Source: Amoebophrya sp. A120 (Eukaryota > Protista > Dinoflagellata). Taken from it: a stretch of 64,000 nt of DNA. This document shows positions 3,218 through 62,300 of this stretch, piece by piece (position 1 is the stretch's first letter; each line of letters starts with the position of its first letter). The notes beneath the pieces were generated by a model, which was given only the letters and a program-made list of their open reading frames with translations, made no database searches and was not told the origin of the DNA. The translations under genes were made by a program, and so were the position numbers. The stretch covers positions 581,982 through 645,981 of the forward strand of contig CAJINV010000011.1 of the NCBI GenBank assembly GCA_905178155.1, in the 5' to 3' direction.

Positions 3218-6200
3218 ACCACGTATCAGTTTCGCGGAGAATCCGCGGATTCCGCTCCTCAGCCGATGCTTCCGACTCGCTCTCCCCCACGAAATCGTCG
3301 TCATCCAGCGGCACTGCGTCCGCGTTTCCAGAAATGCCGTCTGGGTGGTCATCGTCCTCCATCGGCACCACATCCGCGCAGCTACCGGCGGTGCCCGAGG
3401 TCTCGTCGGGCTGGTTTGTCCCGCCCGCGCCGTCGGAACAGCGGCCATTCGCGGACTCATCCTCCTCTCTCTCCTCGCCATCACTGTCGTCGCCATCTAT
3501 GCCTTGCTCAGATGTTACAATCTCGAACGTTTACAATTATAAAAATCCGGATTTGTGCTGCTAGAAGAACTTCTCGTCAGCAATCACAAACACAATTCGA
3601 CCTTACTGTGACACAGCAAGGTCAGATTGTGATTCCGCGTGACAGGTGCTAGAGCGGCCAACCACGTGAGAATTCTGTTCTGGTGAAATTTGTGGATGCA
3701 AAAAATACAAGACTCTCTATGTTCCTCATGCTGTTCTTCATCCAAGGTAAATTCCAGACTCTATTGCAACGTTTGAGATTGTAACACCTGACAAGGTCAT
3801 ACGGTCGCTGACGCTTTCTTCCTGCTCGTCCTCCGCTGGGGAAGGTTCCTCAAAGAGTCCGTCCACAGAAAACGAGAGGTGCTCGAAAGTACGGTTCTCG
3901 CAGGCAGCGAGCTGCTCAGTCGGCGCGTGCAGTGACTCGCACCAGCTAGAGGCTTCGTCAAAGTGAAGTTTCAGCAGCTGCTGCCCTTCGGGAGTCCGGG
4001 TCGCCTGCACAAGCTGGACTAGGGTGCGGAGCTCGCTGACGCATGCCTCCGCTTCCGATCTGGTAGCAACACCAGGCACGCGGAACTTGCGCTCGCGAAG
4101 TCGGTTGGCCACGTAGACTGCTAATTTGTCTGCTTCATCAGCACCACCATCTGCCTGCTCAACCTTGATTTGGATGGCGTCCGCCTCCGGGTCGGGAGCC
4201 GCGTCCCCCGGAAAGACAACCCGCACGTCGGCATCGAGCAGTCCAAACGCGCCCAGCGAGGCGTTTCCTCGCGCAGTAGATTTTTGCACCCCCTGAATCT
4301 GAAGCGAGAGGAAGGTGCCGGAAATGGTGTCTACTTTGAAAATAGCAGCGATGTGCTTCTGCTTGAACTCGAAGCGCGGTTTGACGGAGAACGGATCGAG
4401 CCGCGGCAACTTGGGTAGCTCCCCAATTTTAAGGCCAAGTCCACTCCACACCGGCGTCAAGTTTTCGCTTCTCCACAAACACTTCTGGTCGTAGATGAGG
4501 TGATGCCGTTTGTGATACTCTTCATGCATTGCAAACATGTCTTGGTCTGGAACACAGTAACTGGTGATGCTACGTCTACACCCTGCAAGAATCTGTGTTA
4601 CATGTCTGCCAGCAGTTGTCCACTTTTGACCAAGTTGAGAGGGAGTTTCTCACGCATGACAGGCATGATAGAGGTCGCACAGAATCTGTCATGCCAGGTC
4701 CTGCATTGCAGACCTCATGGGTCACGGAAAATCTGCATGACAAGCTTCCACACTGCCAGACCCAGACACGTTTGCATTTGATACTTTTGGTTCCACAGCA
4801 ACTTCTCCTTCTCGGAGGACACCTTGAGACTCAGTGAGCTAGTATCAAAAGGAAAAATCCCCCCGCCCCATATCGAAATGGAAATCTGTGACGCAGGATT
4901 TGTGTACACAAATTTGTCTTGCGGTGAAGGACTGCAGACAGATACAAAGTCCGGAACGGGGTGGCTTAGGGTAGGTACTTAGCATGGCAGACGTCTGCCC
5001 TAGTAGCGCAGCAGCGTTACAAATCGCCTGCGAAATGCAGCGGAAGCCGTGGCTTTGCTCTCTTGCAAGACAGACTCGATTTGTGACGACCACAAAGCAG
5101 CATCACAAATTTTGAAAAGCACGCCTTTTCGATATGGGGAGGGGGGATTTTTCGTCACAATAGCCAGACGGTAGCCCCCCCGCTGCTTCCATCTTTCCGG
5201 GGAGACTCACCGCGAACTCTCCCGCCAAAAGGTCAAGCTCACGAGAAAGCGCCATGTGGAGGGTGTGCAGCACGTAAAATTCTTTGCGTAGCGAAGGGAC
5301 GGAGTGGTAATGAAATCTAATATTTCCGGGAGTCGGAGGTGGAAATCCTCTGTCTACGCTGCGTTCTGCGAGTTAGTATGAATTTGTTTCGAAATTATTT
5401 TTTCCTCGTCCAAGGAACAATACTCAGCTTTTCACGTAACGAAGATAGTTAAGCGGATCTTTTTTACGAGCGACAGCACAAAAACAAAGACAATTGCACC
5501 TAAAAATCTGAAAAGATACCTGTGATGAGCTCGACCAGCAGCTGCCGTCCACTCGCAATCACCATTCCCCCTGCATTCACAACACAAAACTCCACGGCGG
5601 GTGCCAGAAGATGAGACTCCTTCGGCTGCACGAAGTCGGGGTTTTTCCAGCAGACACGGGCACCCATCCGTTCCATCGAAGCGCCGGACCACATTGCAAT
5701 AATCCGGTGCATGATCGAAGTGGAGGGAGCGGACTTCGTGCCACTGTCGGGTTTGATCTTTCGCGCTGCGTCGCAGATGCCCTTTACTTCACGCTTGTAG
5801 CTGCCGTGTATCCGCTGCAGATCGGAGATGATATAGTCCAGCGCATGGACATGCTTGTAGTAGCAGCGCTTTTTCGACTCCAGCAGCTCATCGTATTCGA
5901 CCAGTTTTTCCGCACGGTGGTATTCCTCGGCCGTGGACAAGGCTGCAGCGGTGTACTCAAGACACTTCCAAAGCCCCGGCTTATTCTTGAATGCGTCGTC
6001 GACACCTGCGATACAATTGCTCGTTGTGCGAGAAGATTCCGCCGGAAGAACTTGCCCTGCTCTCTCAGCAGCGGTCCCTTCATCTTCCTCGCCACCAGAT
6101 CTTGCCTGAAGATCCTCGTCGTGATGGCACGTAGATGGTACTACGTTTGTTGACTCAGCACTGCGGAACCAGTCATGTTCCAATCCGACGACAGCCGCAA

Positions 6201-6606
6201 GCTCCTCCGCCACCTGAAACGCGTCGAGGGTCCTCAAGGCCGCGGGCAAGATCGTCAGTACGGCACCAGGCTCCAGCAGGACAACCGACGGTGCGGCGCC
6301 GAATTCATGAGGGTCTGGTCCCTCGATAGCGCCGGGTAGTTCGTTCGAAGGAGGAGGACTGGAGGAAGATTCGCCGGAGGAAGATTCATCTTTGGAGGGC
6401 GCACTGGGGCGGACCGCACGCACCCTCTGCAGCAACTCGTCATATGCCGTACTCCCTGGCTCCCACCCCATCGCGGTTTCCAACGCAGATCGCGTGAAAA
6501 AGGCCCCTTCTTCAGGAACGGAGAAATGCCGGAGCTGCATGTCGGAAGCAGCCTGGGCGGCGGCGGTGGTAACGGAGTTTTTCACTTTTGAAGATGCCAT
6601 CTTCAT
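3218..6606 (-). CDS. Hypothetical protein A (multi-exon, acidic C-terminus; 3' end uncertain)
   Basis: ORFs 5500-6606 and 3738-4538. Removing introners joins LLWNQK|YHKRHH and SVSDR|DDSDGEE in frame. The link between 5500 and 5163 is assumed to be a canonical intron. Confidence 0.6.
3498..3801. mobile_element. Introner, family H (TIR TATG..TCAG.TGTTACAATCTC.AACG)
   Basis: TIRs; flanks ccatc/cggtc. Confidence 0.8.
4523..4783. mobile_element. Introner, family A (TIR TATCAAATGCAAA.ATGTCTGGGTCTGG)
   Basis: TIRs; left end CA instead of TA; flanks ctctt/ctttt. Confidence 0.8.
4843..5162. mobile_element. Introner, family D (TIR TATC...GGAAAAATCCCCC.CCCCATATC)
   Basis: TIRs; flanks gctag/gccag. 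Confidence 0.85.
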
Positions 6607-7583
6607 CTATAATTTCACGGAAAGGTCTTATTTCGAAAAAAAAACAAAACGGGAACTTTCTCTGAACAAAAACTTTCTTTGTGCCACAATTTTTGGGGAA
6701 CAACGAGGGTTGACTGTATGCGAGCAAAAATTCCTTGTCCGAGTCTTTTCGATCATTTATTCTATCGAGTTCGTGGCACTGAACCAGTCCAAGCGACATA
6801 AAATCGAGACTGCTCAGGTCAAAAGATCGAGTTGCGTTTTCAACATCTCCAGACGAAGATTACTAAGCGCGAGTTGTTTGTCAGCACGAAGAAAGCCTTG
6901 ATGTTGTCCTGCAAAAAACCGGTACTATCGCTCGGAAGTGGAAACAAACTCAACACTCGGTGTCGGGTGTGAAAAAACGAAAAAAAACGAATAAGTCGAA
7001 ATCAACGCACTTAAACGACTCATCGCGACATCTGCGCAAGTAAAAACCGAAATTTCGGAAAGAAAAGATTTTAAAAACAGCAGCGAGCGCTGCGTGCTTT
7101 CAAAATGAGATCTCTTCCAAAAAAAAGAACAATGAGTACGCACCAGATAAGGCGCCTCGTTACGCAATATATTCCATGTTGTCACAGGCCACCAAAGTCC
7201 CGCTGACTTGAGCTTGACAAAGTTCATCCTCGTAAGTATAATATCTGTTGCAGCAAAACTCATTTCTCTTCTTCAAGGCGCAATCTACGCAAAAAGCGGG
7301 CAAGGCGCAATCTTTCGCAAGCGCGAAAGCGGATATTGGCGCTCTGCCACCAGCCTTCAAATCCTTTCTTCCATAGTGTACAGAAACTCCTGCGCTTGTT
7401 ATTTCCACGAACTGCCTTCAACGGCTGCTCATGGTGTGACGCCTGCGACGGAAAACAATTACACGCGCTCCTGGAGAAACAGAGTAGACGATGAAGGTAC
7501 TTATGCTAGTGCTGTTTTTTGACAGTGGAGGACGCTCCGTGTCTTTTGTTTTGGTCCGACGTGGATCTCTACTGCAATTTCTA

Positions 7584-10500
7584 TTAACCGGTCGTATTTA
7601 TGTCCTCGTCCTCGAGATCAGAATCAGAATCGAAGAGCGTCGAACCGCGCGTCCGCGGCGTCCCGGAGCCAGTACTACTTGCCCAGCTATGATGCCTGCT
7701 GCCCCGGGACAACAACTTGCGACGAACCGCCGGATCTCCCGCTGGTCGTCCATGTTGTAGTTCTGGCTGCTGCCGAGAACCACGAGAAGCTCCTGCCGGT
7801 GGCGGGACGCGACAAATGCGCGCGCTTTGCAGCCCGGTCCGCAGGAGCCGCAGCAGCGTCCGAATTTCCGCCTTTGCAAACGGATCCGCGGTGTAGGCTG
7901 CGGCACAGTGGTCCAGTGGCGCTAGTGGTTCCGGAACGACCTTTACCGGCACATATGGAGGAGGCAAACCGGACGAGTAGGAGTGAAGCACTGTATGAAC
8001 TGCAAAAGTATCGTACTCGTATAGATGCATTTTTTCTCAGCATGAGAAATAAAATTTGTAATGCGGATTTACCTTAAGAAAGAAATTTGTAATGCATGAA
8101 TGCGATTAGTACGAGTACGATACTTTTGTACAGGATACACTGCGGCGCCGACCAACTCCGTCAGCACGTCGAATCGCAAGGCGGCGATGGACTCCTCCTC
8201 CGCCTCAGAAACCGCAAAGTTGACGACGGGGCGGCCGACCGCGTCCGTGCAGACGTCGGCTACCAGTGCGGCGAGTTCGCCGGCCAGCCGACATAGACTC
8301 CCCCCGCCATCCCACAACACCATCTTCGCCAGATTCGCCAGCGCCGTCCCCTGCGCCAGAAAGTACAGTCCCGTCTCGCGCGGCGCACAGCTCCCGAACA
8401 GCGGTTCCCCGAGCGCGAGGCGCACCAGCATTTCCTGAACCGCTTGCACCGCGAGCAGACCCGCGTGCGTGACAGAAGCACAGGCTGTGGTCGACAGAAA
8501 TTGTAACGGAGATGCTCCTGCTGGGCCAGCAGGCTGTTGCGCTGCAGCTTCTAGGATATTGATTCCGCCCTGCAAGGAGCGCGACAAAAACGTCGACGAC
8601 GCAGACGTTCCAGCATTGATTGTACCACTACTACCACCTGTTGTTCCACCTTCGATCACCGCGGCGGCTGCTGCTGAGAAGGCACTCGCACCCGTCATCG
8701 CCGCAGCGCCCGCACACGGCCCGCTGCGGATAAAGTCCGCCAACGTGTCGCGCGCCATCTGCAGCTGCTGCAGTGGCTCGAGAAAGGTCGCCGACGGACG
8801 CACGTGGGGAGCGCGGACGGGGCGCACCCGGAGACACTGCACGGCGAAGACGCGCAATGTCCAAGCGAGGAGTTGCCCGTACTTGTTTTTCCGCCCGCAC
8901 AAACTTTTCAAAGCGTCCTCGGTCACGAACGCCAGCGCGAGATTGCGCAGCAACGCCAGCGCGAGCCCGAGCCGCGCCAGGTCGTCGTCGGACACCCCCT
9001 TTTCGTTCCCCCGCAAACCAGAGTACGTCGTGTCGTGCAGGAACCCGATTGCGTTCGCGAGAACCACCAGCTGTGCGGCCCACCGCGCCGCCCGCAAGCA
9101 CGAGGCCGAGATTCTGCCGATGTGTCGGGTGCACTCCCCCAGCCGATGTTGAGCTATCAAATGTAAAAGTGTCTGGGTCTGGAAACTTGTGATGCTGTGT
9201 GGCGTATCATGAGGAGGCGACAATTGCTGGCTCAGCATGATAAGTTTTTGAGCTTCTAGAGGTTGCCTATTCTGCATGACAAACTACGTTTCTGCATGAC
9301 AGAAAAGTAGGGCTCTTTGGTAATGTGCATGACAGATTTAAGAATCACGCCAGACAAGCATGACAAACTTGCATTCTTCCAGACCCAGACATTTTTACAT
9401 TTGATATGAACGTGTGCCGCTCGACTGGAATTCATCTCCGCCGTCTCATCGGCTCCTGGTCCTCGCGGCGGACCCGCAGATGAAGTACCGCTGCTACTGA
9501 TTTCACGTGCAAATCGCCGCAACCGCTCGACGCGGAACAGTTTTGCGAGCGCGCGGCCGCAAGTTGCACCGGCCCAGCGGATATCAAATGCAAATACGTC
9601 TGGGTCCTCTGGAACAAAGCAACTTGTCATGCTAAATCTGAATCATGGAAAATAAATCTGTGTTGCATGATTACCGAATAAAGTTGTCCACTTTTGACAT
9701 AATCGAGAGGCAGTTTCTCATGCAGGAGAGGCATGATAGAGCTCTCACAGAATCTGTCATGCTATGTCCTAAATACCAGACCTCATGGGTCATGGAGAAC
9801 CTGCATGACAAGTCTGGCATTCTTCCAGACCCAGATCGATATTTGCATTTGATAGCGGAGGCACTGCGGAACCACTACTCCCGGCGCTCGGCTGGGAGTA
9901 GTCCTAACCCAAGAAGGTGGTTGTTCCCCGCCGTCTACGACTCTGTCGACCAGAGTCAGGAATTGCGCAAGCAGGTGGTTGGCTTGCTGGTCTACGGAGC
10001 TGTTCTTGTTCGACCTTGCAGTTACTCTACCTCGTCGCGAGGTAGTACAACTAGTTGATGGCATCATCATCTCCACGGGATTCAGCGCCAGTATTTCCTC
10101 GGTCTCGGTTATCGCAAGAAAAAAGTGTTACAGTTACACACTGTGTTGCAAGACCGGCAACACAGACAACCTTTCTCGTGCAGAAAATGCTTCGGAGCCT
10201 CGTTTCCTTCCTGTTTTCCCTTATGATCTTCGCATTGCAAGTTTTCTCTGTCACACAGAGAAAATTTGTGATGCAGAAACTCCAACAAATGTGTAACTGT
10301 AACACTTTTTTCTCGTGATATCGGTCCGGCACACAGGACACCGGCCCTGGTACGTCCGCGCTCGCCGCATCTGCGAATAGCACTTCCCGTGAATAAAATG
10401 TCCACACGGCCACAGACCGAAGCTGATGCGGCTTGATGTTTGTCCTGCTGGGTCTTGATGTTCCCGGACACATACAGGCTCCAGACAGATCGGGCACGAG

Positions 10501-11095
10501 ACTCCTTCTGGTGCTGATGTCGCCGCATAATAGTTCGGTCCGGTTCGTTGGTTCGATGCTGCATGACCTGGTCTAGTACCTCTTCCTGCAGATGACGAAC
10601 TGGTGCTGCCCGTGCTTTTTGTACTAGACCAACTGCTGCTGCTGCTGCTGCCGTGCGATTCACCTTCTACCTCGCCGGCGCTGTTCTGCAGGTCTACTAC
10701 ACACGTGAGAAACGCGCTTAGTTGCCGCGATTTCTCCCGCGAAAAAACCGACTGCCCGGACGGAGCGTCGGTTTTGTTTCCTCGAGAATTATTTCGTGGT
10801 CCTCTCCCCCCTGCTGCCCCACCTCCGGACGCCGACCGGAGAAAGGATCTGCGCTTGGCTTCCGCAAAAAGCAGAGTGTGACTGGAGGTCCTCGACGCCC
10901 CAAATGAAGGGCGTGGGACACCACGAGGACCACCTGGCGGGGTCGTGTCCCCCAGTCGTTCCTCCACTGCTCCCAGCAGCTCCTCCACGACGTGCTGCAG
11001 TCGGATCGTAAAAAATGCCGCGCACCAAACCGCAATTCCAGCCAGGGAAGTGAGGCGAGAAAGAAACATTTGCTTGTGATTTCGTCCTGGCATCA
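7584..11095 (-). CDS. RING-H2 (C3H2C3) zinc-finger protein, putative E3 ubiquitin ligase; 4 introners
   Basis: CPICLEP...WPCGHFIHGKC...CPVCR at about 10325-10500. All four junctions are in frame (RT E|TEE, CLR|WAG, HVQ|HRL, AAV|LHS). Start codon uncertain. Confidence 0.8.
7994..8137. mobile_element. Introner, family F (TIR TAT....GCAAAAGTATCGTACTCGT)
   Basis: TIRs; perfect TSD cactg. Confidence 0.9.
9155..9406. mobile_element. Introner, family A
   Basis: TIRs; flanks tgagc/tgaac. Confidence 0.9.
9582..9854. mobile_element. Introner, family A
   Basis: TIRs; perfect TSD gcgga. Confidence 0.9.
10110..10320. mobile_element. Introner, family E (TIR TATC.C.AGAAAAAAGTGTTACAGTTACACA)
   Basis: TIRs; perfect TSD tcggt. 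Confidence 0.9.
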
Positions 11096-11991
11096 TCAAC
11101 CGTTTGCTGCGATCTTCAAAAATAAAGTGGAACTCTGACTGCAACTATCCACCCGGAGCCGAAGTGAGTAGTCAGGCTGTATCTAAACTACTTACATTAA
11201 AGCAAAACCAACAAAATTTCTGTGCATAGTATCAAGAAGTCAGCAGCTGCCCCGCCGCAGCAGAAGCATTATCAGAAGAGTATAGCTCTATGAACTGCAC
11301 GAAGAAAGAACTGTCACTGACAAATATTGCCCCGATCCGAATCTTTCAAAAAATGCTGCAGCTCGCCGAAAGAAGTTGCCTTTTGCTTGCTCTCTAGTCA
11401 CCAGCTGCAAGAAATGAATACAAGAAAAACGCTGCAAGGAACGAATGGTGTAGTTCGACGCACGCTGACGCTGATCTTGTATAGGAATATCTCACAGCTA
11501 TCATCTTCGCTTAAAAGTAGACAATGCGAATTGCTCTTCTCGTCAGGAAAAAAACGAGGCACCTCAGTTACATAATTGTCGATCTTTTGATCCTTCTTTC
11601 ATCCAGAGCCGCGGCTCACATCATGACGGAGTGCGATTCGTTACCGAGCTGAACGACTGTTCCACTCTCTTGCTGTTCCTGAACAAGTAAGCGCTAGGAC
11701 AAACACTACTTAACTACAGAGTGTGAGTCTGAGTGGGTAGTACTTTATCGGCAGATCAAACACTAGCTCCTTCCGGCACAGCTTCCAGATATTGCAAAAA
11801 AGTTTTGCTCTTTTTTTTTAAACTACAAATCACAAAGCTAAAACTGCGAGAAAGTTCTGTAACGACATCAGATCGGAAATGGTGGTGATCCAGGCTCGTC
11901 ATCACTGATTTTTCGCGGTTCCTGTTCGTGGTCCGCTCTTCTATCGGCACGATCGCAAATCAATGAGCAATGAAACGACAACTGCGCCTCG

Positions 11992-14900
11992 TCAGCCCCC
12001 CGCACGATGCCAGTCCCGCCACAAGACGGGGACTCCTTCTTCTTGATACGCTCGTTTACTGTGCGACGACGTTTGCAGCTGCGAATGCACTTCCTTCCAT
12101 ACCTGGTGACAGTCGTACCAAAGCTTGTGTTTCAACACTTCCATTTCACTTCGCAGTTCCATGGCCACGTCCACCGGTTTCCCGCCCGCCGCGGGATGGC
12201 ACACCCGCTGCCAAGTCGGAATGACCGCGCGCCGCTGGTAGCCGTAGCAGAACTCCAACAGCTGTAGCACCGCCTCGCACTCGGCCCAGGTGTGGGTGGT
12301 GGCCTCGAACACGATGAGTCGGGGCAGTGCGATCAGCCCCAGATTCTCGAACCGTTCCCACATGAGGGACCGCACGATGCCGTAATCGGCGTATCAAATG
12401 CAAATATCCCTGGACGTCTGGAAGAGTGCAAGATTTGTGACGCAGGTTTTCCATGACCCATGAGGTCTGGAATGCGAGACCCAGCATGACAGATGAGATT
12501 CTTTGAGGTCTCTATCATGCCTTTCTTGCATGAGAAACCCCCTCCCAACTTGGTCAAAACCGGACAGCTTTTGGCACTCACGCAACACAGGCTTTTGCAT
12601 CATTCAGATTTAGCATGACAAGTTCTACTTAATCTTCCAGACATACAGGGATTTTTGCATTTGATACGGCGTTGCAGCAGTCGATCTTAATGGTGTCGAT
12701 GAGCAGAACGCGCTGCAGGGTCTATCGAATGGAAAAATCCCCCCTCCCCATATCAAAACGGAATTTCTGATGCTGGATTTGCGTACACAAATCAGCTTTG
12801 TATTGCAGAGAGGCATTGCGGCCAGGTCCCCAGGCTATGTAGGGGCGTATAGGTCTAGTATTTGTTCAGCATTGCAAACGGCTCCCCTTTAGGCCCAACC
12901 GCATGATAAATTGCTTCCATAATGGGGCGGAAGCTTCTGTCCTTGTCTTCTTGCAATACAAGTGTGATTTGTGACCTCAAATCCGCAACACAAATTTTCG
13001 GAAACATACCTGTTCAATATGGGGAGGGGGGATTTTTCCTTCTGATAGCGTCAGGATCTGGTGCAGGGACTCCACCGGGACCAGTTATCCTGTTTAAAAA
13101 CGCCCCCACCACACAGGTAGTTGTCATGCAATTCTGCATGCTGAAAATGTTTCCCATGCGTAGTCCCATGCGAAGCGCCCACTCGTCGCGTTTTGGAATT
13201 TGTGATGCTCCAACCAGCATAATAGGCCACGTCTGTGATGCTGCTGAAGCAACTAGCCAAACCGAACTACATTACGAGGCCAAACTTGTTATGCGCAATG
13301 CCCAAAGCTAGCTGATTTGTGCAGCAGATTCTCCATCTTGACTCTGGGGTGGAGGGGATGCTTTTATTCAGAATACCAGTTCGCGCTTCATCAGGTGCAG
13401 CAAGCCGTTGGAGGCGAGCACCTGCAGCAGGTAGTCGACCGGCTGCTCTATGCTCGTGCACGCGCACGCCCGCTCGCCCACGAACTGGCAGGTGCGGCAG
13501 TCGTACTGCCGATGTAGCCGGCACACTGTGTTTCCGCAGGTCCGCATGTGCTGCATCAGGTCCGGGTCGAGGCCGTAGAGGTAGCGGTAATGGTTTGCAT
13601 CAAAACTTCTAGTACTGGCCCGAGTGGGTCCTTTACTAGGTTTTCGCCTCTGCCACTCGTCCTTGCGCTTCCAGGCTCTCACCGCAGCAACCTGGATTTC
13701 ATCCGTGGGTTGGATCTTTACAAATATGCACCATAGGCATATTGTTTGACGATCACGACGAAGACGATCAGACATATTTATTATGAACAAGTTGCACAGG
13801 ATGAAAGTCGTGCAACGAAAAATGAAAAACAAGAACCCTCTTCTACTACGTCTCTCTCGCCAGATTCGGTCCGGTAGCTGAGCGGGAGGGGCGCGGCGAG
13901 TAGTTATCGTAAGGGAAAATCCCCCCTCCACATATCGAAAGGGTGCGTCTCAGAAAATTTGCAATGCTGATTTGTGGCCACAGATCGTTTCTGTCTTGCG
14001 CGAACGCAACTCCACAGTCTCCGCCGCGTTCTGCAGGCGGTTTGTGATGCTGGTGGCCCTACAGACTAGACGTTTGCCATGCGCAGCGCCTAGCCCAAAA
14101 CATCTCTACGCAGTCTTGATATAGGCCTGCAGTCCTCTCCAGCAAGACAAATCTGATTTATTGTGTATGCAAATCCAGCATCAGAAACCTCGTTGCGATA
14201 TGGGGAGGGGAAATTTTTCCATTTGATAGCAGGTCCCGCCCCGGCTCGGATACAAACGAGCTTTGTTCCTCCGGAATGTCGGACACCTGCAGCGAGTCGG
14301 GCGTGGCGTCCTCTGCTGAAAAAGTAAGCACCTGTTGCTCGACTGCGCAGGGACCACTTGGCCTTGTGTTCGTGTTCGTCCCGGGGTGCCCACCACTGTG
14401 GGGGTTCCTGGAGGTGGTGCTTGTCGTTTGCTCCTGCTTGATGGCACTGAAAACGTCATAAATTTTCCAACCGTCTACTTCCTCGACAACGAAGCCTGCT
14501 TCCGTCTGGATCTGGCCGCTGCTCCTATTGGTTATGACTTGCACTTGCTCCTCGCTTGCTCCTTCAAAAATATTACCATCGCGTGCCGGTGGTCGTGTCT
14601 CTGTCTTCTTCGCCACATGATCTTCCCGTAGTTCCCGCTGCAAAGGGACCGGAGCCTCCTCGTTGTATACCACTTGTTCATCTCCGATGCTGCTGGTGAC
14701 AAAGACAACATCGTCGTCGTCATAATTTTTATCCTTGCGGCGGTGGGCGGCCACCTGCTCGCCCGCAAGTTCCTCCTCTTCTTCCCACACTTTCCCGGTC
14801 TCCCGGTAGTAGAGCCACGAGAGAAAGTCCGGATTCGTGCAGTCAGAATCGCGGACCAGACGCAACTGCTCTCCCTCGGACTTGTCCGAGAACCATCCCT

Positions 14901-15819
14901 GCTCCCACCTCCAGTACTGCACCACCCAGCTGGCCAGGTACTTTCGGTGCTCCTCGTCCTTGATTTTCCGCTCCCCGCGCCCCGTGAGCCGCGTTTTGAC
15001 TACTTTTTGCAACTTCGTCAGGTTGCCCGACTCTTCGGGCAGCGAGTCGAGGTTCTGTGTCCCAGGAAAGAACTGCAACTGCTTCATCACTCTTCTTTGT
15101 TTTGCAAGATCTGCACCACAACCTTTTTCCACATGACACGGAAACTTTGCCGTGCGCGCTTCCGCCCAAGTGAAATATTAAACACAGTGGAAGATAGATC
15201 AAGTGTTTATTTGCAGGTGTAGCAAGACAAAAAAGTTTTGCGTTTCAAATTTTGCATCACAAGTAAGTTCACAGTGAAACGGTTTCTATTTTCCTGCGAT
15301 ATTCTGCTGGATGGCGTCAATGCTGATCCCCGTGGCGGTCGGCAACCCCAGCCACTCCTCGCAGCCCTTGTATAAACTTGCGCATTTCGAGGAGAGGAAG
15401 TACGCATTGCTGTCCCCGTCCCGGTCAAGGTCCTCAGGGAAGCAGGCCTGCGCGAAGCTCTGGTAGTACGACGCACCCACCTCCACGAAGTCCCGATACT
15501 CCGGGAGAACCACCAACGCGGGGTCGTCGAGATGCTTCCGTACCAAATCCTGAAAAAACAGCGCCACGGCGTTCAGGGTCAGCAGCTTGTACCTGCGGTA
15601 GTCGAGGCTGGTAACCTGGTCGATTTTTGCCAGCTGCTCCAACTGCTTAAACCTTGGAATCACCAAGTAATCCCGCATCGACAAGGTCCCGCGTTTATCC
15701 GCCGGCAGGTCGCGCTTCAAAGGCCGCATGCCCCAAAAGCAGTGGTTCAGCTCGATCACCCGCTCTCGTCTCCGGACGGCGGGAGCTCTTGCTCTTGGTG
15801 GATGCGAGAAGTCCGTCAT
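11992..15819 (-). CDS. FkbM-family (Methyltransf_21)-like SAM-dependent methyltransferase with long insertions
   Basis: N-terminal FVEVGAS motif. Reconstructed C-terminal LLIDTIKIDCCNA|DYGIVRSL...PRLIVFE resembles FkbM IDxxKIDxEGxE...PxIxxE. The junction near 15110-15300 is not resolved. Confidence 0.6.
12392..12666. mobile_element. Introner, family A
   Basis: TIRs; perfect TSD cggcg. Confidence 0.9.
12723..13047. mobile_element. Introner, family D
   Basis: TIRs; flanks gggtc/gcgtc. Confidence 0.9.
13086..13375. mobile_element. Introner, family B (TIR TATCCTGAGTAAAAACGTCCCCACCCC)
   Basis: TIRs; perfect TSD ccagt. Confidence 0.85.
13905..14228. mobile_element. Introner, family D
   Basis: TIRs; flanks gtagt/gcagg. 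Confidence 0.85.
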
Positions 15820-36904: not shown

Positions 36905-37035
36905 TAGTGCGTAGTTGTAGTAGTTTAGTTGCGCCAAGCAGAAAACTCATCAGAAGTGCTACACTCCTTACAAACAGAACAAGCGATGGCAACATCACCT
37001 GCTGTTAAGGTGCAGCTTCAGGATGTCCAGCACTA
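36905..37035. repeat. Intergenic dispersed repeat, second copy at about 40290-40430
   Basis: gtagtagtttag.tgcgccaa...aactcatcagaagtgctacac...acaaac present at both sites. Confidence 0.65.
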
Positions 37036-40638: not shown

Positions 40639-40868
40639 TATGAGAGTGCACAACCCCCCCCCCACGTCCCTCTCGTTCGCCATGCAAAAGTATACCATCT
40701 CCACACATTGCGTTGCCTCGTGGCACTTTTTGCATGACAAGTTCTAGCAGCCGAAACAGTGCGTACAATCCTGTGCAAAATTGTCATGCAAGACCTGCAC
40801 TGTTGGTGATGCTTGTATTGCTGCTCATGCCTTACACGCGAGGGGAGGGAGAGTTGTGCACTCTCATA
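40639..40868. mobile_element. Family C element outside any recognised CDS
   Basis: Perfect 16-bp TIR tatgagagtgcacaac; flanks gtgcg/gcgcc. Confidence 0.85.
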
Positions 40869-47529: not shown

Positions 47530-47640
47530 CCGGGCGGGGGCCGGACCGGGTGGCAGGGCGGGGGCCGGACCGGGTGGCCGGGCGGGGGCCGGACCGGGTG
47601 GCAGGGCGGGGGGCGGACCGGCGGGGGCAGGACTGGGTGG
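47530..47640. repeat. GC-rich 24-bp tandem repeat (GGGCGGGGGCCGGACCGGGTGGCA)
   Basis: Three to four tandem copies, G-run rich. Confidence 0.85.
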
Positions 47641-52800: not shown

Positions 52801-55800
52801 GTTTAGCAAGCGCAGCCGCATCACAAAGCCATCTGCTCATCCTCTTTGCAGCATTACAGAGTCCAAAACACGATTGCAAACGCCTCTCATGGGGATGCGC
52901 GTTACAAATTTTCCTGTGACTGCAAATCTGCATGACAACTATGGGGTTGGAATATAGTGGCCGGGAGATGATGGTGATGGCACTTTGGTGTCCGCCTGAC
53001 CCACCCGCCCTGCGTCTCAAGCCATCTGCGGCCATGGCACAAAGGGGGGGCAAAGTGCGTCGCATTTTGTTTAGCATGACAACTATGGGGTGGGGACGTT
53101 TTTACTCAGGATACTGTGTTGCGATGAAGGCAGCGTTTGCGGAGAAGTACGGGGTAATATGCGAAGAAAAAAGTGTTACAGTTACTTACAAACTCTGATG
53201 CAAGACCAGCAAGAGAGATAACCTCTGTCGTGCAGGAAATGCTTTCCAGCCTCATTTCATGCGTGTTCTTTTCCCTTATCGTCTGCGCATTACAAGTTTT
53301 CTTCGCTACGCGGTAGAGCGACTTCGTGATGCTGAAATTGCAACGAATGTGGAACTGTAACACTTTTTTCCTGTGATAGGTAAATGCAAGACCCTACTGC
53401 GATGAAAAGACGAAGGCGGCGATCGAGAAATTACAGCTGCTGCCGCAGAAGGTATAAAAGGGATCATATATTTTTTCAGTGCTGAATGAAGATGCTAGGT
53501 ATAAAAGCTATGCTCTAATTTCTGCTATTCAAAATTTTTTAAAAATCTCACTGCAGTGTTTGCGAATCAATGCTATTTTTTTACCTGCACAAAAAGAAAC
53601 CCAGGTTCCCCTCCCTCTCATGCGCCTTCTCCAGAACCTCTTTGTCTCCCCGGAGCGCGAGCTGGAGACCCAAAATTCCGCCAAGCTCATCAAGTCCCGG
53701 CACGTGCGGCACTCGCAGCGGGACAAGACCTATCGCGGTCTGTACAGCGCGCTGCAAGCCGCGGTGGAATCGTGCGTGGTCGCTCCGGAAGACGATGTGA
53801 TTGACGACCCGATCGAGTCCAGACAAAATCGGCTCCCGCAACTCCACCTCCGCGACGGGAAGCACATCCAACTCTCCGCCTGCGTGCGAGGCGAGGAGCG
53901 GACGGAGTTTTGGCTTTCTGGATTTCTGAAATACCCGTATTTAAACCGGGGGTACAAACTGGACGAGGAAAAACTATGCATTGCAAAGGTATGATCGTAC
54001 TAGTATAAATCGCATGACAAATTTCCTCAGCGTGAGAAATGTAATGCGGTTTTCACTTGACAAAAAAATTTGTAATGCATGACAGCGATTGCTACGAGTG
54101 CGATACTTTTGCACAGGATAAGAGCCGTGGATCAACAATTGTCCGGTGTTTTGGGCGTGCCGGGACACCCGGAACGTGCCCCACACGAACGGCAGGTTCG
54201 AATACTTCCTCTACTTTGACGGCCACCGGTACTGCATCCAAGCGGCGAACAAACTCCACGACGTGCAGGCGGCGCGGCAAACGTACCCCCTAGCGGAACT
54301 GGTCACCACCGATCTCCCCTGGTGGGCGCCCCGCACGCAGTGGCGGGAGCTTCTGGGGGAAAGGTTGCCGACGAAGAAGGTGGAGGCGAAGGATTTCGAT
54401 GCAAAGCCGGTGGAGGTCACGGCGACAGCAGTTCTTGGAGGAAGACAAAATGCTGAAAGAACACAAAAATCTTCACACAGAACCACCGGCTCCTGTACAA
54501 CACAACAACACGATAGTAGGTTCGATGTTTACGTCAACTGGGACTGCTTTCTCGAAGTTCTGGAGGCGGAAGAGGAGGAAAATTTCGAATTGAACAAAGA
54601 CCTGGCATGCATCCAGCTCGCGGCCGCCTCTGATTTTGCGAAGGACGTTCTGCAGAAGGTACGGGACGGCTTGGGGAAACTACGCACGATCGCGTTAGCG
54701 CAACACGACTGGGACGAGATCTCGAAAAGGGCGCAGGACCGCCTCATCAAAATGTTCATCCCGATGGACGAACAAAATAAATCGCGAGTAGCAGCGGACG
54801 AGGTTCATCTTGCACCAGAAATAATAAACATTAATGAAAATAAGAACAAAAACCGCAGCACAAGCACAACTTCAAGCTGCCTCGAGGACCCTGCGTTAAT
54901 ATTACTGCAGAAGTCCACCTTGGCCAAGTTCCGTTCCACCGACGTTCAGCAGCAGCTCGCGAACTTCGTCGCCGAGCTATTGAGAGGAAAAATCCCCCCT
55001 CCCCATATCGAAAAGGTATGTTTCCGAAAATTTGTCTTGCTGATTTGAGACCACAAATCACGTTTGTCTTGCAAGAAGACAACTCCACAGGCTCTGCCGC
55101 ATCATGCAGGCGGTTTGTGATGCTGTTGGGCCTACACCATAGACGTTTCTCATGCTAAGCGCCTAGGCCACAACTTCTCTACTCAGGCTTGGCAGGAGCC
55201 TGCAGTCCTCTACTGCAAGACACACGTGATTCGTGTACGCAAATTCAGCATCAGAAACTTCCGTTTGATATGGGAAGGGGGGATTTTTCCTTGTGATGCG
55301 AGCAGCTTGCGCGGAAAAAGCTGTGGCTGGACCGGGGAAGCAATACAGATGAAGAAGATGATCCGGATAAAATGCTACTCGGCGACGCGTATGGATTGCA
55401 AATATGTCTGGGTCTGGAAGAGTGGAACTTGTAATGCTGTCTGCGGATTCTAAAAATATCTGTGTTGCATGAGCAGCAAGAGGACTCAGCTTTTGGCACG
55501 CGGAGAGGGCGTGTCTCATGCGTAATTAGCATCAAGAGGCTCTCAAAATCAAAAAATCTGTGTTGCTAGCACCAGCATCACAGACCTCACGGGTCATGCA
55601 AAATGTGCATGACAAGCCCCGACTCTTCCAGACCCAGACATTTTTGCAGTTGATACCGCGGTCTTGCGGTTCTTCACGGCGCTGCAGTGCTTGAAGTCGA
55701 AGCATAGTGTCCACGAAACGGAGGCGATCGACCAGTATCTGTGGAGCGAGGAGTGTCTCGGGAAGAGCTTGTACAAGGACCTCCGGTACACCATTGGGCA

Positions 55801-58234
55801 CAGTTTGGTGCAGTCGGAACAGAAGTACACCACGCTGACAAAGTTTATCGCAAGCAAAAAGTGTTACTGTTACACGCATAGCCTTCTACTATGCAGGGAA
55901 AGCAAGACAGACAACCTCTGTCATGCCGGATATGCATACACACCTTGTTTCGTACGTGTTTTATTCCGGTAGGATTTCTGCAACGCAAGTTTTCTGCCTC
56001 AGGCAGAGAACAAATTTGTGTTGCTGAATTGGCAACAAATGTGTAACTGTCAACACTTTTTCCGTGTGACAAAGTTTCTCGCGACCTTGCTGGAGAGGGA
56101 AAAGCTCCGGCTGCCCCCTGCCTTAGCGGATGTGGCCGCGGGGGTGAAGACGACCGAGGAGTTGCCGTTGCCCACCGTTCTATTACACTGCATCAACGCG
56201 GCACACTTCACGAGCTTGTTGGAACGGAAGAAGGGCTTCGGGAAGGAGAAAAGGGGATTGCTGGACCTCGATTATGGCCGCCGCGCGGGGGAGAAGAAAG
56301 ACGAAGAAATATTAAACGACGTCCTCCTTGGTGCATCGGAACCAGCTGCAAATGCAGGGTCGTTGAAAACAAGCACGCGGTCAAACTCAACATCCGTGAG
56401 GAGCAATAAGCTACTTGGAGAGCCGCGCGGTGGAGCAGGTCCTCCGGCTGCGAGTGCATCGACAAGTGTGGTTGAGCGACGTGGTGAACAAAAATCCGCA
56501 AGAAGCTGCTGCCCTGAGCATGATGGTGAATCGAATGAAGGCATCGTGAAGGGCGCGCTGGAGCTGGCAACGAAGATAAAGACTACGAATCACAATGCTA
56601 GTACGTGGAATTATAACGCGCAAGCAGGAACTACAGTGGCAAGCTACACGGAAGACGCAGTACAAAATTCGGCGCAACATCAAGAAGTAGACTCCACCCG
56701 CCGCCGCCGCACGTCGAGCTTGGAGGCAGCGGAGAAAAGCATACTCTCTAGCAGCGTGGGGACCACGCCGGTGAAAAAGCGCAATGCTTCTACTGCCGAA
56801 GAGGAAAAAATCAAGCGCGATGAGCAGAACGAAAGCGCGGCTGGAAGCGCTGGCGGAGCTGCTGCTTCGAGCTCAAGCAAGTGGCTGGCGAGTGTGCAGA
56901 ACCGGATGAGCAATAAGAGAAAAAGATCTTTGTCCAGCGAAAGCGAGAAGAGCTTCCAGCCGAAGGAACTTTCGTCGGCACTTCAGACGAAGGTTTTGGG
57001 TGCGCGGAAGTCCTCCCCGAAGTTCACCATTGAAGAAGGTCAGTCCTATCCCAGTGCAGCTTCGGAAAGCGACAGAGAAATAAAGCCAGTCAAGGAAAAG
57101 AAGAAAGTGAAATATTATGACAAATCCAAGAAAGAAAAAAAGAAGAAAAAAGCACGGAAGGAAAGAAAAGCGAACAGCGATGGTGAAAAAAGTGACGTCC
57201 TCGAGGAGGTCTCTTTTGACCAACGGCCCGGGCATCTCAAGCTCATGAAGGGCGTAACCCTCAAAGAGCAGAGAGGGAAAAAGATAGAGGAGCAGCGTGA
57301 GGGTGGTGCCCAATCGAAATCCACCTCCGCTACGGAAGGTGGTGCTAAAGCCTATCCCTTTTTCGCCGGTGCAGCAGCTGCAGCAAGAACGACGACTAAA
57401 TCTAATGTTGTCCTCCCGAAGAAGATTTCCCCCCGGCGACAGGCGCAATACGACCGCGACTACCAGGAATTACTACACCTCCGGGAGCAGAACCGCTGTG
57501 AGAATGCGGGCACCCGCCGCTTGGACGAGATTTACCAGGAAGAGAAGGAGGCGCGACAAAGGTTAGAATTGCAGAAGAAGGAAGAAGAGGCACAGAGGCG
57601 GAAGGCAGCACAGGAAGAGAAGTTGAAAAAACTGAGGTACGTCGAAAAGCTGCAGCAGAGCTACCAAAATAACGCGGGCGATGGGAAAATAAATGGGCTG
57701 CTGCTGGAAGAAGCTGGCGAGGCGAGATGTATTTCGCAGCGCAACCCCGGGATGCTGACGCAGAGGAACCCGGCGTCTCTCTCGCAGAGAATTGCAAATC
57801 CGCTGTTGTTAACCACGCCGTCGCCAGAAGTGAATGCAAAAAACACTACTGCGTGTTCTTCTACCGGGGTGGATTTCTATCGGAAATTCTGCCGCGGTGC
57901 GGCAGTGGATTATGGATTGCAAAAATGTCTGGGTGTGGATGATTGCAACTTGTCATGCTAAATCTGAATCAGGCAAAAAACTGTGTCGCATGGTTGCCAA
58001 AAGTTGTGCACCTCTGATCTAATCGAGAGGCAGTTTCTCATGCAGGATAGGCATTCGAAAGGTCCCACAGAATCTGTCATGCTATGTCCTACACACCAGA
58101 CCTCATGGGTCACGGAGAACCTGCATGACAAATCTGGCAATCTTCCAGACCCAGACATTTTTGCAAACCATATGGATCTGAAACCTGCAAAAGGGAAATG
58201 CATCCTCAAGCCAGGACCGAACGGCAGGAGGTAA
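49874..58234 (+). CDS. Large hypothetical protein with a Lys/Glu-rich C-terminal region; 12 introners plus one GT-AG intron
   Basis: Junctions checked are in frame (PKQE|GPWD, DH|VRL, HA|EFT, KLA|KGK, RSD|QVL, IC|VAMK, EEK|PWINNC, AVD|LKP...RR*). No recognisable domain; start uncertain. Confidence 0.7.
50034..50184. mobile_element. Introner, family F
   Basis: TIRs; perfect TSD ggagg. Confidence 0.9.
50247..50567. mobile_element. Introner, family D
   Basis: TIRs; perfect TSD ccacg. Confidence 0.9.
50601..50944. mobile_element. Introner, family B
   Basis: TIRs; flanks cacgc/cacgt. Confidence 0.85.
51329..51636. mobile_element. Introner, family B
   Basis: TIRs; perfect TSD tggcg. Confidence 0.85.
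52022..52191. mobile_element. Introner, family F
   Basis: TIRs; perfect TSD tctga. Confidence 0.85.
52691..53113. mobile_element. Introner, family B, with an internal insertion
   Basis: TIRs; perfect TSD ctgtg. Confidence 0.9.
53158..53378. mobile_element. Introner, family E
   Basis: TIRs; perfect TSD ggtaa. Confidence 0.9.
53975..54120. mobile_element. Introner, family F
   Basis: TIRs; flanks aaaac/agagc. Confidence 0.85.
54978..55298. mobile_element. Introner, family D
   Basis: TIRs; right end TG; perfect TSD cgagc. Confidence 0.9.
55390..55655. mobile_element. Introner, family A
   Basis: TIRs; flanks acgcg/ccgcg. Confidence 0.9.
55846..56071. mobile_element. Introner, family E
   Basis: TIRs; right end CA; perfect TSD aagtt. 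Confidence 0.9.
57911..58172. mobile_element. Introner, family A
   Basis: TIRs; perfect TSD tggat. Confidence 0.9.
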
Positions 58235-59357
58235 TTTTTCGAAAAATTGACGTGTGGCTGGTATTGTTTACATTGGAATCACCTTGCACAGAATAAAATT
58301 ACTATACTAGCGACATTTTTTCACATGATCTACGCGTGACGTGTGACATAAACGATGACAGCAAGTACATGCCGTGTAATTGTGCAGCATGGGTGCATTG
58401 TCCCTATCTGATTTGATAATCAGATCACGCTAATACGCCCTGACGCATCATTCATAAGTAAACATATTTTGCAAAGAGCGGTTTCCTAAACTCTGCATCA
58501 CGAGGGGACGACAGTTGCAATGGATCGCACCTGAAGGACCAGGTTTTATTTCTTCCAAGGATCAAACATAATTTCGGAGCCCTTGCTTCCGCAAATATTT
58601 ATCGTGTTGCAAAATTTGATTTTGTTTTTGTCCTACTGGTTTTTTTTGATACGTAAAAAACAGCTGAATTTCTTGAAGCGTAGTATAATCTGTCGATTCC
58701 ATGACCCGATAGAAAAAAGTTTATCCAGTCGGTGCCATACGTCTTCCAAACCGAAAGTAGATGAACAGAGTGAACACAAACTTCGGTCGTGTGAAACACG
58801 CTCAAATAAGGCCGCCATTCGGTAACATGAGAGCCCACTGTTTCTTTTGTCTTTGCAAATCGTTTCTGTGCGTCGCACTGACGCAGCAAACCGTTTTCCA
58901 TGTCGTTCAAAAATTACTTCCAGGGAACCCCTTTTTGTGGACATTTTTCTTGTACCCTCCCAGTCAGATGAAAATTGAACAAATGCATGCGCGTTCATAG
59001 TGGCACATTTGCTTTGCTCTTGCCAAATCGCATTTACGGTTTCCAGTGACGCGACCTACCATATTACACCAATAGATCCCGCCGCGGTCGTTCTTTTTTT
59101 TTTGCGACAATAAGAAAGCGCGCAGTGTATGTGCCAGGCAATAACGGATTTTAAGCTCGCTCTGTAGAGGAATGTGTGACGTTGAAATTATGCCGTTGAG
59201 CCGCGCTCCCCCGGATCGCGTAACTACACTCGCGCGCCGCCGAGCTGCTCCCGTATAGGAAGCGGCGCCACAGCGACCATTGGTTTTCAGGATAAAAAAG
59301 CCATACTTCGGGAACTGCGGTATACTCGTTCGTACTAGTTCGCGGCCGTGTGACATA

Positions 59358-62300
59358 ATGTCTACTCCGGAGATCATTGGCCCCGCCGCTGGTGCTACAA
59401 CCCGGTCACAGGAGAACGAGGACTCGAAAATCCTCTGTGAGCCGGTTCCTGACGAGGAGGATGTGTCCACCGAAGTCCCCTCCCTGGTCCCCGACGAGGA
59501 CGAGCTTCCGCCGCTGCGGCGACGCACCAGCGAGTTTTCGCGGTCGATGTCCAAGGATTTTCCGGCGGTCACCGTGCATATTTTACCGGAGAAAGCGCAG
59601 ATATTTTCCCTCTTCGAGTGCCACGAGGTGTACACTATGGGGCGGGACATGCTAAACGAGCAGGCAGACAGAAGAGATAAAAAACCGAGTTCAACAACAA
59701 CATCTGGGCGGTCATCCTCGTCTTCCAAAGGCATAAGAACAACTTTGCAGCAACTCGGGAATTATCCTGTGCAAAAGTATCGTATTCGTATTGCAGTCAT
59801 GCATTACAAATCTTTTTCTTAGGGTAAATCCGCATTACAAATTTTATTTCTCATGCTGAGGAAATTTGTAATGCATTTATACGAGTGCGATACTTTTGGA
59901 GTTCATAGAAATCAGCTTTTAAGCCTGAGCAGGAGCGCCATGGAGCACCGGAGTAAGCTTCGGAATCTCTCTTATCAAATGTAAAAATGTCTGGGTCTGG
60001 AAGATTGCAACTTGTCATGCTGAATCTGGATCATGCAAAAATTTGTGTTGCATGATTACCAAAAGATGGCCACTTTTGACCAGTTTGGCAGCGAGTTTCT
60101 CATGCAGAATAGGCATGATAGACACCTCACAGCGTTTGTCATGCTAGGTGCTGCATTCCAGGCCCCATGGGTCATGGAAAAACTGCATCACAAATCTTGC
60201 ATTCTTCCAGACCCAGACATTTTTACAGTTGATATCTCTAGTCCCGATCAAAAGACCAGAGATAGCGCATCAAGCAGTACCGCCCTAAATTCAAGTACTG
60301 TCCCCGATGGACCCGGCTCCGGCACGACAAGCAGCAGTACGACCGCTACTACAGCTTCCACCTCGTTTCAGTTTCTGCACTACGCGCACTATTTCCGGGC
60401 GCATTTTCTCTCCTGTTCCGCGGTGTCCCACCCGTGCAAAACTATCATCACCGCGTTTCTGATCCTCCTCTACACGGTCATCGCCTACATTCCGTTCGGC
60501 GTGGGGAAAAAGTTCGTGACCACGATGACGCCCTACACGCTCCCCCCGATGATGGGATCGCTGGACGCGCGGATGTACGCATTCTGCAAATATGTCTTGG
60601 TCGGGAAGATGAGTGCGATACTTGTCCTATGCTGGTGTGGCATGACGCTGCGCTCTGTATTGCGTGGCCACGATGAAGAGCTCCTCCCGTCTGTCATGTA
60701 AGAACGCTGTTTCTCATGCGGGCTACGCAAGAACACAGAGCCACGGAAAAACCTGTCTTGCTTCGCGGTGCATTGCAGTGTGCTATGCTATTCGCTGACA
60801 TGCATTACAACTTTCCAGGCCCGGACATATTTGCACTCGATAGGATGTGCCGGGTGCGGGCGGAGTTGCTGAAGAACGCCCACGGGACGGTGTTGGACTT
60901 CGGCGCGGGGTCCGGTGTGTACATGAAGTACTGTTTTCCGAAAACGGAGAAAAACCAGTTCGGGCAGGACGGGAACAAGGCGAATTTCGTCCACAAGTAC
61001 ATCGCGCTCGAACCCAATTTGGAAATCGCCGCGCAGTTGAAGAGGCAGTCGGAGAAACTGATCCGCGAGTGCGAGGAGCTCCTGGGGCCGCAACGAGCGG
61101 TGTCCATGCCGGCGAAGGCGGTGTCCAGCATCCCGCCGGCTGGAAAAAGACTCGGAGTTGTCGCAGACGATATTTCGACCGGGGTTGCGAAAGTGGACAC
61201 CATCACATCATCTTCACCACCATCAGAGTTAGAAAGGGCAGCAGAAGGTGAAGGAGCGCATCTTCATGAGAAAAATAAATTTTCCATTCCACCGCGCAAG
61301 AGCTCGGACCCGGAGCTGTTTGGAGGTTCATTCGGAAGTCATTTTTTACCCTCGAGAAGAACCCTGCTGTCCGAAACGGAAACTCCCTCGTCCCCTACCT
61401 CTTCCGCCTGTTCACCGAAGCTGCCCAACGCGACGGCGCTCCGCCGCACCATCACCGAGAGCACCACGGCGAGCAGCACGGATTTTTCGCTTCCGAAACT
61501 CCAGAAACCCCGGCCAAGCTCATTCTCGGTTCAAACCGAGGATTTGTTTCCTACAACGCACGATGTCAGCGACGTAGAGGAGGAGGAGCCACTTTTGTTC
61601 CGGACGGATAGCGTTTCCTCGTGGAATAAAGTCACTAGTGGCCGGGGTGGCAGAAGTAGTCCACCCGCAGGAGCAGCTCCTGCAAGCCCGATCCAAGATC
61701 AGTACGGCATTCAAAAATCTAACAATCCGATGAAGCTCGAGCGGACGACGAGTGCTGTGAGTTCGTCGTCCACGACGATTCGAAGACGCGTTTCCACAAC
61801 GTCCAGCCGGGCGACGGCACCAGAAGACTACGCTCTGGACGACGAAATGGTGGCCGGCGGCGTGGACGAGAAGGAGGACTTCTACCCGCGAAAAGAACAA
61901 CATCAGCTCGATTTATTTGAAAACAGCAACAATGATGAAAACGTGCAAAACGACAAGAATTATGATCCGAGGGCGTACAATAGGAGTATGTTTGAGGAAA
62001 ATAAGAATATCAAATCCAACTCCAACACCTTCACTACCTCCCTCGGCACCTTTCCGCGCCGGAGGATGCTGAAACACATCCCGGAGGTCGAAGTTGTCAC
62101 GGAATACCTGCAAGAGTACGCGAAGCGGATCCCGGAGAACAGTATCGACTACATTTTACTGGGCAACGCGCTCTGCATGGTAGACGACGTGGAGAAAATT
62201 TTGCAAGATTTGAAACGGTTGCTCAAACCGGAGACGGGCCGGATTTTCTTCTCCGAGCACGTGGCGGCGCTCCCGCGGAACTCCTGGCGCCGGAAGCGCC

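Follow-up and report, generated by a model that had tools for sequence, protein, structure and literature searches.

Shared ends and a helically spaced internal motif suggest a common mobilising protein for introner families of Amoebophrya sp. A120

Introduction

How can many families of short genomic insertions, unrelated in most of their sequence, carry the same ends and the same internal motif? This question is raised by a 64,000-nucleotide stretch of the genome of the dinoflagellate Amoebophrya sp. A120 (GenBank assembly GCA_905178155.1, contig CAJINV010000011.1, positions 581,982 to 645,981 of the forward strand; hereafter the window), which harbors 61 non-coding elements of 109-446 bp. 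A first-pass annotation had pointed out a repeated TTGT(C/G/A)ATGC motif in all of their families and had proposed a common trans-acting factor, reading the motif either as a transposase-binding site or as an intron-definition or branch signal. The window elements are of the introner type already published for A120, the ends and 5-bp repeats of which were known beforehand. In its text and legends, the study of Farhat et al. (2021; PMC7789003) puts the A120 introners at tens of thousands, in about 2000 families, and leaves two questions open: what moves them, given that no transposase has been recognised, and how splicing proceeds in the absence of U1. Our analysis indicates that these elements are probably non-autonomous DNA-transposon introns, in which the shared ends and the TTGT(C/G/A)ATGC repeats are putative cis-sites of one common mobilising protein, while splicing likely depends on the paired ends rather than on the motif.

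Results

The window elements were listed anew by an automatic step blind to the motif, whose 55 inverted-repeat calls became 61 elements after three removals and nine additions by hand. For a larger sample, the end pattern of one family (family 0) was used to collect 145 loci (634 kb including overlaps), in which a detector also blind to the motif found 443 further elements; this detector recovered 48 of the 61 window elements and made no calls in three shuffles. A codon model (leave-one-out agreement 333/366) oriented 383 of these 443, and the other 60, unorientable or at an edge, were left out. The resulting 444 oriented elements (61 from the window and 383 from the loci) comprise 11 families of at least four members, plus 29 elements in groups of one or two.

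The strict motif TTGTVATGC (V, A, C or G) matched the window 109 times, compared with 2.00 ± 1.25 times in 100 dinucleotide shuffles. A total of 108 copies lie within elements (counting in the large element 24278-26543), one straddles an element end, and the remaining 46,411 bases of exon, untranslated and intergenic sequence contain none. A strict copy was present in 56 of the 61 window elements and in 352 of the 383 locus elements, and a relaxed copy in all 61. As annotated, the motif occurs in every family (11/11) and is rare in exons. Moreover, an unseeded count of words common across families was led by words of this motif (CATGACA in 10 of 11 families and GCATGACA in nine), and the wider site can be written as AA(T/C)(T/C)TGT-V-W-T-GC, about 14 bp long. 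Two simple accounts of the motif, background occurrence and recent common ancestry of the families, had been named beforehand. The counts speak against the former, and the element interiors speak against the latter: with ends and motif masked, they matched across families only for families 4 and 6 (15% of pairs, compared with at most 0.3% for the other family pairs). The identity of positions 16-30 of the terminal inverted repeat (TIR) between families was 0.34.

The arrangement of the motif copies is also regular. Each of the 11 families has members with same-orientation copies 31-33 bp apart, and such pairs are present in 34 of the 61 window elements. The best three-nucleotide spacing bin held 10.7 group-weighted pairs, a value equalled by one of 2000 random layouts in which the bin was free to fall anywhere and families 4 and 6 were merged, and spacings of 8-30 bp were depleted (5.8 versus 18.0). 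Because the identity of the spacers between paired sites was only 0.35, these pairs are not tandem duplications; the units of family 7 do look duplicated (identity 0.69, three pairs). Only 15 of 1598 sites start within the first 31 nt of an element, and the position of the first end-reading site is concentrated at 33-35 and 42-45 nt. These steps of about three and four helical turns may point to a protein seated on duplex DNA. The element 44404-44690 provides an example, with five TGT-V-W-Y-GC sites in a single orientation on the plus strand (44475, 44523, 44556, 44605 and 44636; span 44475..44643), including pairs 33 and 31 bp apart. The first-pass annotation had placed one inward copy about 30-45 nt inside each end. 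This held for 44 of the 122 ends (strict end-reading copies at 30-46 nt; 53 when relaxed), but both ends carried such a copy (at 16-61 nt) in only 11 of the 61 elements, and family 1 had no near-end copies. Nor did the inward layout apply to the 109-bp element 29821-29929, where the two minus-strand copies (29857 and 29889; span 29857..29896) are direct repeats 32 bp apart, the first starting 33 nt from the right end.

At both ends, the 61 curated elements read TAT(C/G), followed by variable bases at positions 5-10 and an A-rich tract at 11-15, where each position is A in 41-57 of the 61. Within single elements, the left and right ends match in 32-50 cases out of 61 at positions 4-10 versus 53-58 at 11-13, bearing out both the end pattern and the frequent mismatch of bases 4-10 that had been described. 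As for the families said to carry TCAGG in place of the A-tract, three elements (3498-3801, 28318-28572 and 31003-31310) have TCAGG/TCAGA there, and family 5, which carries CACAA at these positions, had been passed over. The terminal TA belongs to the element, and a target-site duplication (TSD) of 5 bp sits outside it. This TSD was exact in 40 of the 61 elements and matched in at least four of five bases in 53 (shuffled pairs reach four of five in 1.4%). Exact duplications of 4 or 6-9 bp were not seen among the 61 elements, nor was a target consensus at the TSD in the 383 locus elements, and families are inserted in both orientations (87:91 for family 0). It was also observed that the ends of families 0 and 1, TAT-S-N3-TGC-AAA, look like a stretched version of the internal motif and precede the first internal site by one unit of 31-33 bp; they could act as a terminal binding site of the same protein.

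Removal of the element plus 5 nt left an open sense frame, over 150 nt on each side, at 50 of the 61 sites, compared with 27-28 for out-of-frame removals. Transcript evidence was taken from X3, X4 and X6, which are presumed to be RNA runs, and was compared with the DNA-like run X1. The contigs of the presumed RNA runs skipped exactly element plus 5 nt at all 17 simple joints (eight and nine in two joint surveys); for instance, the TSD AGCTC at 44399-44403 and 44691-44695 (span 44399..44695) flanks a 287-bp element, and an RNA contig skips 292 nt. These joints support the removal of seven family 0 copies (starting at 18150, 20696, 21021, 22854, 42063, 43611 and 45252), of 42367 in family 1, of 23367, 44404 and 44913 in family 2, of 19830 in family 4/6, of 17057 in family 5, of 44183 in family 9, and of the unclustered 29587 and 41832; two further family 1 copies, 52022 and 53975, are supported by contig pieces only. 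None of nine joints seen in X3/X6 was found in X1, whose contigs run through the elements. Nine joint rows (six X1-only and three short-sided) were set aside as repeat artefacts joining different copies, and the raw-read runs X12 (30 partial reads on the window) and X9 (none) were uninformative. When one element was folded, a long end-to-end hairpin stem was predicted (-103.5 kcal/mol, z -5.9). According to the text and legends of PMC7789003, A120 introners have inverted repeats that open with TAT, followed by seven bases of lower conservation and then three or more A, flanked by direct repeats of 3-5 nt (5 bp in the legend of Fig. S19), and they were identified as introns from RNA-seq. The window elements show the same TAT-N7-A ends, direct repeats, mostly non-GT-AG removal, genomic families and, for the one folded, predicted hairpin, with family 5 and the TCAGG-type elements deviating from the published end rule at positions 11-15. 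A Tc1/mariner-type MITE (miniature transposable element with inverted repeats) with a TA target was rejected, as the TSD is 5 bp outside the TA and the joints skip 5 extra nt; leaving one TA would be frame-equivalent to a removal of element plus 4 nt, which was open at 28 of 61 sites versus 50 for plus 5.

Does the motif act in DNA or in RNA? End-reading copies numbered 174 at the 5' ends and 166 at the 3' ends of the 383 oriented locus elements, and the rare-variant rates of motif sites were 0.020 versus 0.022 by strand and 0.021 versus 0.021 by intron half (244 elements). Among the 19 elements with joints or contig pieces, the sense strand contains only GC..ACA in two (44404 and 44913) and only TGT..GC in six (41832, 42367, 18150, 21021, 23367 and 52022). 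In family 2, whose copies are mostly all in one orientation, 18 of 47 members carry the motif on one strand only and 23 of 47 on the other strand only. Furthermore, two of two GT-AG introns lack the motif. The check on old copies suggested in the first-pass annotation was also run: among 360 copies, 70 have a mismatched TSD and were taken as older, and in these the private-change rate was 0.028 in motif columns and 0.0275 in the interior, i.e., the motif decays at the interior rate. Among subfamily members, by contrast, the motif columns were the least variable of the interior (any-change rate 0.032 versus 0.137). The motif is thus best kept among relatives and decays like its surroundings in older copies, as would be expected if the sites serve multiplication and not splicing. 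Overall, the lack of a transcription-direction bias, the neutral-like decay and the absence from the two GT-AG introns indicate that the motif is likely a DNA-site array. A spliceosomal branch-point signal was rejected on the same grounds (no strand or 3' bias, no retention after insertion, absence from ordinary introns). Of the proposal of a common trans-acting factor, the factor itself has the shared top word and the fixed 31-33 bp spacing in its favor; the transposase-type DNA site fits, and the intron-definition or branch signal does not.

Elements with mismatched TSDs reveal which duplicate the RNA retains. At least four upstream TSD bases were kept at 20696, 24278, 53975 (contig piece) and 42668, and at most four at 17057; 41832 and 18150 were compatible, and no joint was seen in the contigs for 33167, 34708 and 50601. 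The direction in which mismatched TSDs had changed did not discriminate between registers. The bases retained at all these elements leave one fitting register and suggest that the intron spans N-TAT...ATA-NNNN. Consistent with this, all nine predominant non-canonical A120 splice sites listed in Table S4 of PMC7789003, as available to us, begin with N-T. The cut would be placed by a hairpin ruler together with the +2 U. Also in line with this register, the first T was intact at all 5' ends of the 444 elements but broken in nine at 3' ends (p = 0.004, uncorrected). Two points weigh against it: the upper bound comes from one joint, the sole exclusion of a cut directly at TAT, and the first-T asymmetry was one of about 15 positions looked at. 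We also noticed that the first A of the terminal ATA (the third end base) was broken five times at 3' ends versus 15 times at 5' ends of the same elements (p = 0.04, uncorrected), and this base might serve as the branch adenosine, 7 nt ahead of the 3' cut.

An aldehyde dehydrogenase (ALDH) gene (484 aa; minus strand, 41600..46484, 3' end approximate), whose coding sequence is interrupted by 10 introners and a single GT-AG intron, offers a check of exact removal. One of its exons was 100% identical to a 484-aa Amoebophrya sp. A120 protein, and the spliced model reproduced that protein without difference. The canonical GT...CAG intron (42954..43513, minus strand, 560 nt, without motif) adjoins the introner 42668-42951, whose TSD spans the 3' splice site of this intron (42664-43513). 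The RNA contigs and the A120 protein read D at residue 399, where removal of one GT-AG intron would yield Y; D399 is reproduced only if the introner 42668 is removed separately with the G of the upstream duplicate kept, which leaves a 1-nt exon in DNA terms. The second GT-AG intron (53452..53604, plus strand, 153 nt), also without motif, has bounds taken from the sequence, with its 3' side fitting a contig piece. An array of a short AAGTCGTGCGCTT-like unit lies at 43020-43460, inside the canonical ALDH intron.

Discussion

A mechanism of the following kind would connect these results. Protomers of the mobilising protein would bind the ~14-bp site AA(T/C)(T/C)TGTVWTGC on one helix face with a footprint of about 30 bp, as in transposons with subterminal sites, and the enzyme would cut at the TA and integrate with a 5-bp stagger. 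Multiplication would be confined to copies whose sites are intact, so that unrelated sequences would converge on one grammar; once inserted, the sites would decay. In the transcript, the TIR hairpin would bring the ends together for splicing, with the 5' cut 1 nt before TAT, which makes the first T the +2 U of the intron; at the 3' side the cut would fall 4 nt after ATA, and the exon would be restored. A bolder extension, to which we give little credence, is that one array-binding protein both mobilises every family and, while sitting on the gene, marks the element for a U1-less spliceosome, which would measure its cuts from the hairpin like a ruler (at N-U on the 5' side and 4 nt past ATA); this would be a self-contained intron-making code, by which any DNA gaining TAT-N7-A5 ends and sites spaced 31-33 bp apart could become an introner.

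Which enzyme could be responsible? By analogy, a Ginger/GingerRoot-like integrase is the lead candidate. A120 introner family 38, described as Ginger-like in the available text of Gozashti et al. (2025; PMC12130899), has the same TA/TA termini and 5-bp TSD and is likewise an intron-making TIR element; it is about 810 bp long and contains open reading frames (ORFs) similar to LTR-element integrase, unlike the shorter, non-coding window elements. IS3EU/GingerRoot elements share the TA..TA termini, with TAY starts, but their TSD is usually 6 bp in the accessible part of PMC10045372, whereas none of the 61 window elements has an exact 6-bp TSD. Short ends combined with repeated internal sites are known from other transposons. 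The hAT elements use subterminal repeats. By its TSD, which was the feature compared, hAT5, as cited in the available part of PMC12730594, resembles the window elements (5 bp in both), and no hAT transposase was found here. As described in the accessible text, Lemi1 proteins attach to repeats in subterminal positions of the Emigrant MITE (PMC1636448), and Tn7-type ends carry TnsB site arrays with a 5-bp TSD (PMC9723613). Both serve as working analogues in combining a short end with repeated transposase-bound internal sites, not as families of membership: Emigrant belongs to the pogo-like elements, Tn7, a bacterial transposon, has TGT ends and ~20-bp sites, and neither is spliced out.

Several points weigh against a common mobilising protein acting on a DNA-site array. 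Neither the window nor the 145 loci yielded a transposase or an autonomous element: Pfam searches of 20 + 9 window ORFs returned ALDH, methyltransferase and RING domains and no transposase, and scanning for long elements turned up nested pairs or pairs due to chance, with no coding element. Rfam gave no matches, and the family 0 end pattern had no matches in viral contigs. The text and legends of PMC7789003 likewise find no transposase in A120 and argue against general transposase mobilisation. The number and orientation of sites vary among families. Within the window, end-reading copies number 30 at 5' versus 17 at 3' ends, a bias that the loci do not repeat. Motif columns also vary less than the interior overall (0.021 versus 0.035 and 0.019 versus 0.024). 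Selection in lineages that multiply would produce this, but so would weak selection once an element is in place; regression slopes did not separate the two options, and redundancy of several motif copies per element could hide a weak later role. Finally, the loci were picked by the family 0 pattern, which skews the sample (191 of 444 elements belong to family 0), and the transcript evidence consists of contigs, not reads, from runs whose label was guessed.

Whose protein binds the sites is a matter on which strand symmetry and helical spacing are silent, since they indicate a double-stranded DNA site but not its owner. A host DNA-binding or chromatin protein (e.g., of the ApiAP2 type), exploited for activity or for marking elements for co-transcriptional removal, would agree with the failure to find a transposase and with the retention of a relaxed site in all 61 window elements. 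It nevertheless appears rather unlikely, because the strict motif is missing outside the elements, older copies decay in a neutral-like manner and the sites are phased to element ends; TGCATGCA, which we take to be an ApiAP2 site, is itself absent. A role in RNA, as a branch-point or intron-definition signal for a U1-less spliceosome, draws on the UnAC branch-like word in GCAUGACAA, often located 30-45 nt from the 3' end, and on the loss of U1 reported in the text of PMC7789003. The existence of RNA-skipped elements with the motif on only one or only the other strand, the lack of 5'/3' or strand bias and the two motif-free GT-AG introns make this role improbable.

An equally poor fit is the view that motif and ends are leftovers of a single common ancestor with no present role. 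In its favor are the relationship between families 4 and 6, the seemingly duplicated units of family 7 and the room that BLAST leaves for deep ancestry; yet motif and spacing recur, at differing positions and orientations, in families whose surrounding sequence and TIR positions 16-30 are unrelated, and the motif columns change least among subfamily members. Least credible of all is removal from DNA, with the motif guiding elimination as in internal eliminated sequences: precise removal leaving one duplication would look the same, but X1 (one life stage, maybe the source sample) has none of the nine X3/X6 joints and its contigs run through the elements, which PMC7789003, as far as its text and legends go, calls introns from RNA-seq.

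The A120 introners of Farhat et al. have the same ends, direct repeats, many families and non-canonical splice sites; the text and legends of that paper contain no internal shared motif or 31-33 bp spacing and call the splice positions variable. Within the open-access literature, and for PMC7789003 within its text and legends, the internal cross-family motif with its spacing appears not to have been described, and the probable fixed splice register likewise appears not to be in print. That the site recurs across families and is helically phased speaks for a single machine serving all of them; the site also offers bait with which to catch the missing protein, and a signature by which the autonomous element could be recognised. 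A shared mobilising enzyme, if true, would account for the spread of so many differing families, and a fixed N-U/+4 register, if true, would allow exact intron annotation and suggest that the spliceosome still reads the +2 U.

Element coordinates and other features of the window

Family 0 (TIR positions 16-30, TGTCTGGGTCTGGAA) has 18 copies between 4523 and 60842: 4523-4783, 9155-9406, 9582-9854, 12392-12666, 18150-18436, 20696-20958, 21021-21293, 22854-23125, 27998-28260, 33884-34154, 42063-42330, 43611-43872, 45252-45475, 45535-45785, 55390-55655, 57911-58172, 59973-60234 and 60576-60842. The eight copies of family 1 (AAAAGTATCGTAC; 7994..59907) are located at 7994-8137, 28628-28783, 34363-34521, 42367-42558, 50034-50184, 52022-52191, 53975-54120 and 59763-59907, and the seven of family 2 (AAAAACGTCCCCAC; 13086..53113) at 13086-13375, 23367-23645, 31907-32195, 42668-42951, 44404-44690, 44913-45218 and 52691-53113. 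Family 3 (AAAAAGTGTTACAG / AAAAACTGTGT; 10110..56071) also has seven, at 10110-10320, 15058-15301 (degenerate, ends uncertain), 33167-33375, 34708-34927, 35551-35762, 53158-53378 and 55846-56071. Six copies belong to family 4/6 (AAAAATCCCCCCTC; 4843..55298), at 4843-5162, 12723-13047, 13905-14228, 19830-20275, 50247-50567 and 54978-55298, and four to family 5 (GTGCACAAC ends, with CACAA; 17057..46055), at 17057-17277, 30313-30532, 40639-40868 and 45827-46055. The small families (29821..51636) are family 8, consisting of the 109-bp element 29821-29929, family 9 (35273-35443 and 44183-44365) and family 10 (51329-51636). Besides the three TCAGG-type elements, those unclustered (3498..50944) are 29587-29781, 38067-38351, 41832-42019 and 50601-50944.

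Two family-5-type elements, 24278-26543 (minus strand, 2266 bp) and 1027-3217 (2191 bp), are each swollen to about 2.2 kb by differing nested, array-rich inserts. RNA contigs skip the former with its nested arrays as one 2271-nt intron (element plus 5), and the latter, which lies outside the range of the first-pass annotation, has an exact ACCAC duplication and a satellite-rich insert. Within the 2271-nt intron, inverted arrays of GTTCGTTAC/AACGAACG units at 24760-26340 are bounded by a separate inverted repeat.

Elsewhere in the window, 36800-37000 and 40170-40390 share a stretch, about 3.4 kb apart, flanking a 353-aa ORF (38284-39348) with no Pfam match; this pair is possibly a duplication or an LTR-like unit. 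Bases 1-540 recur at 6525-7060, suggesting a local duplication. GC-rich repeats and an AT-rich degenerate array, without RNA-contig cover, occupy 47500-49200, where minus-strand genes switch to plus-strand ones.

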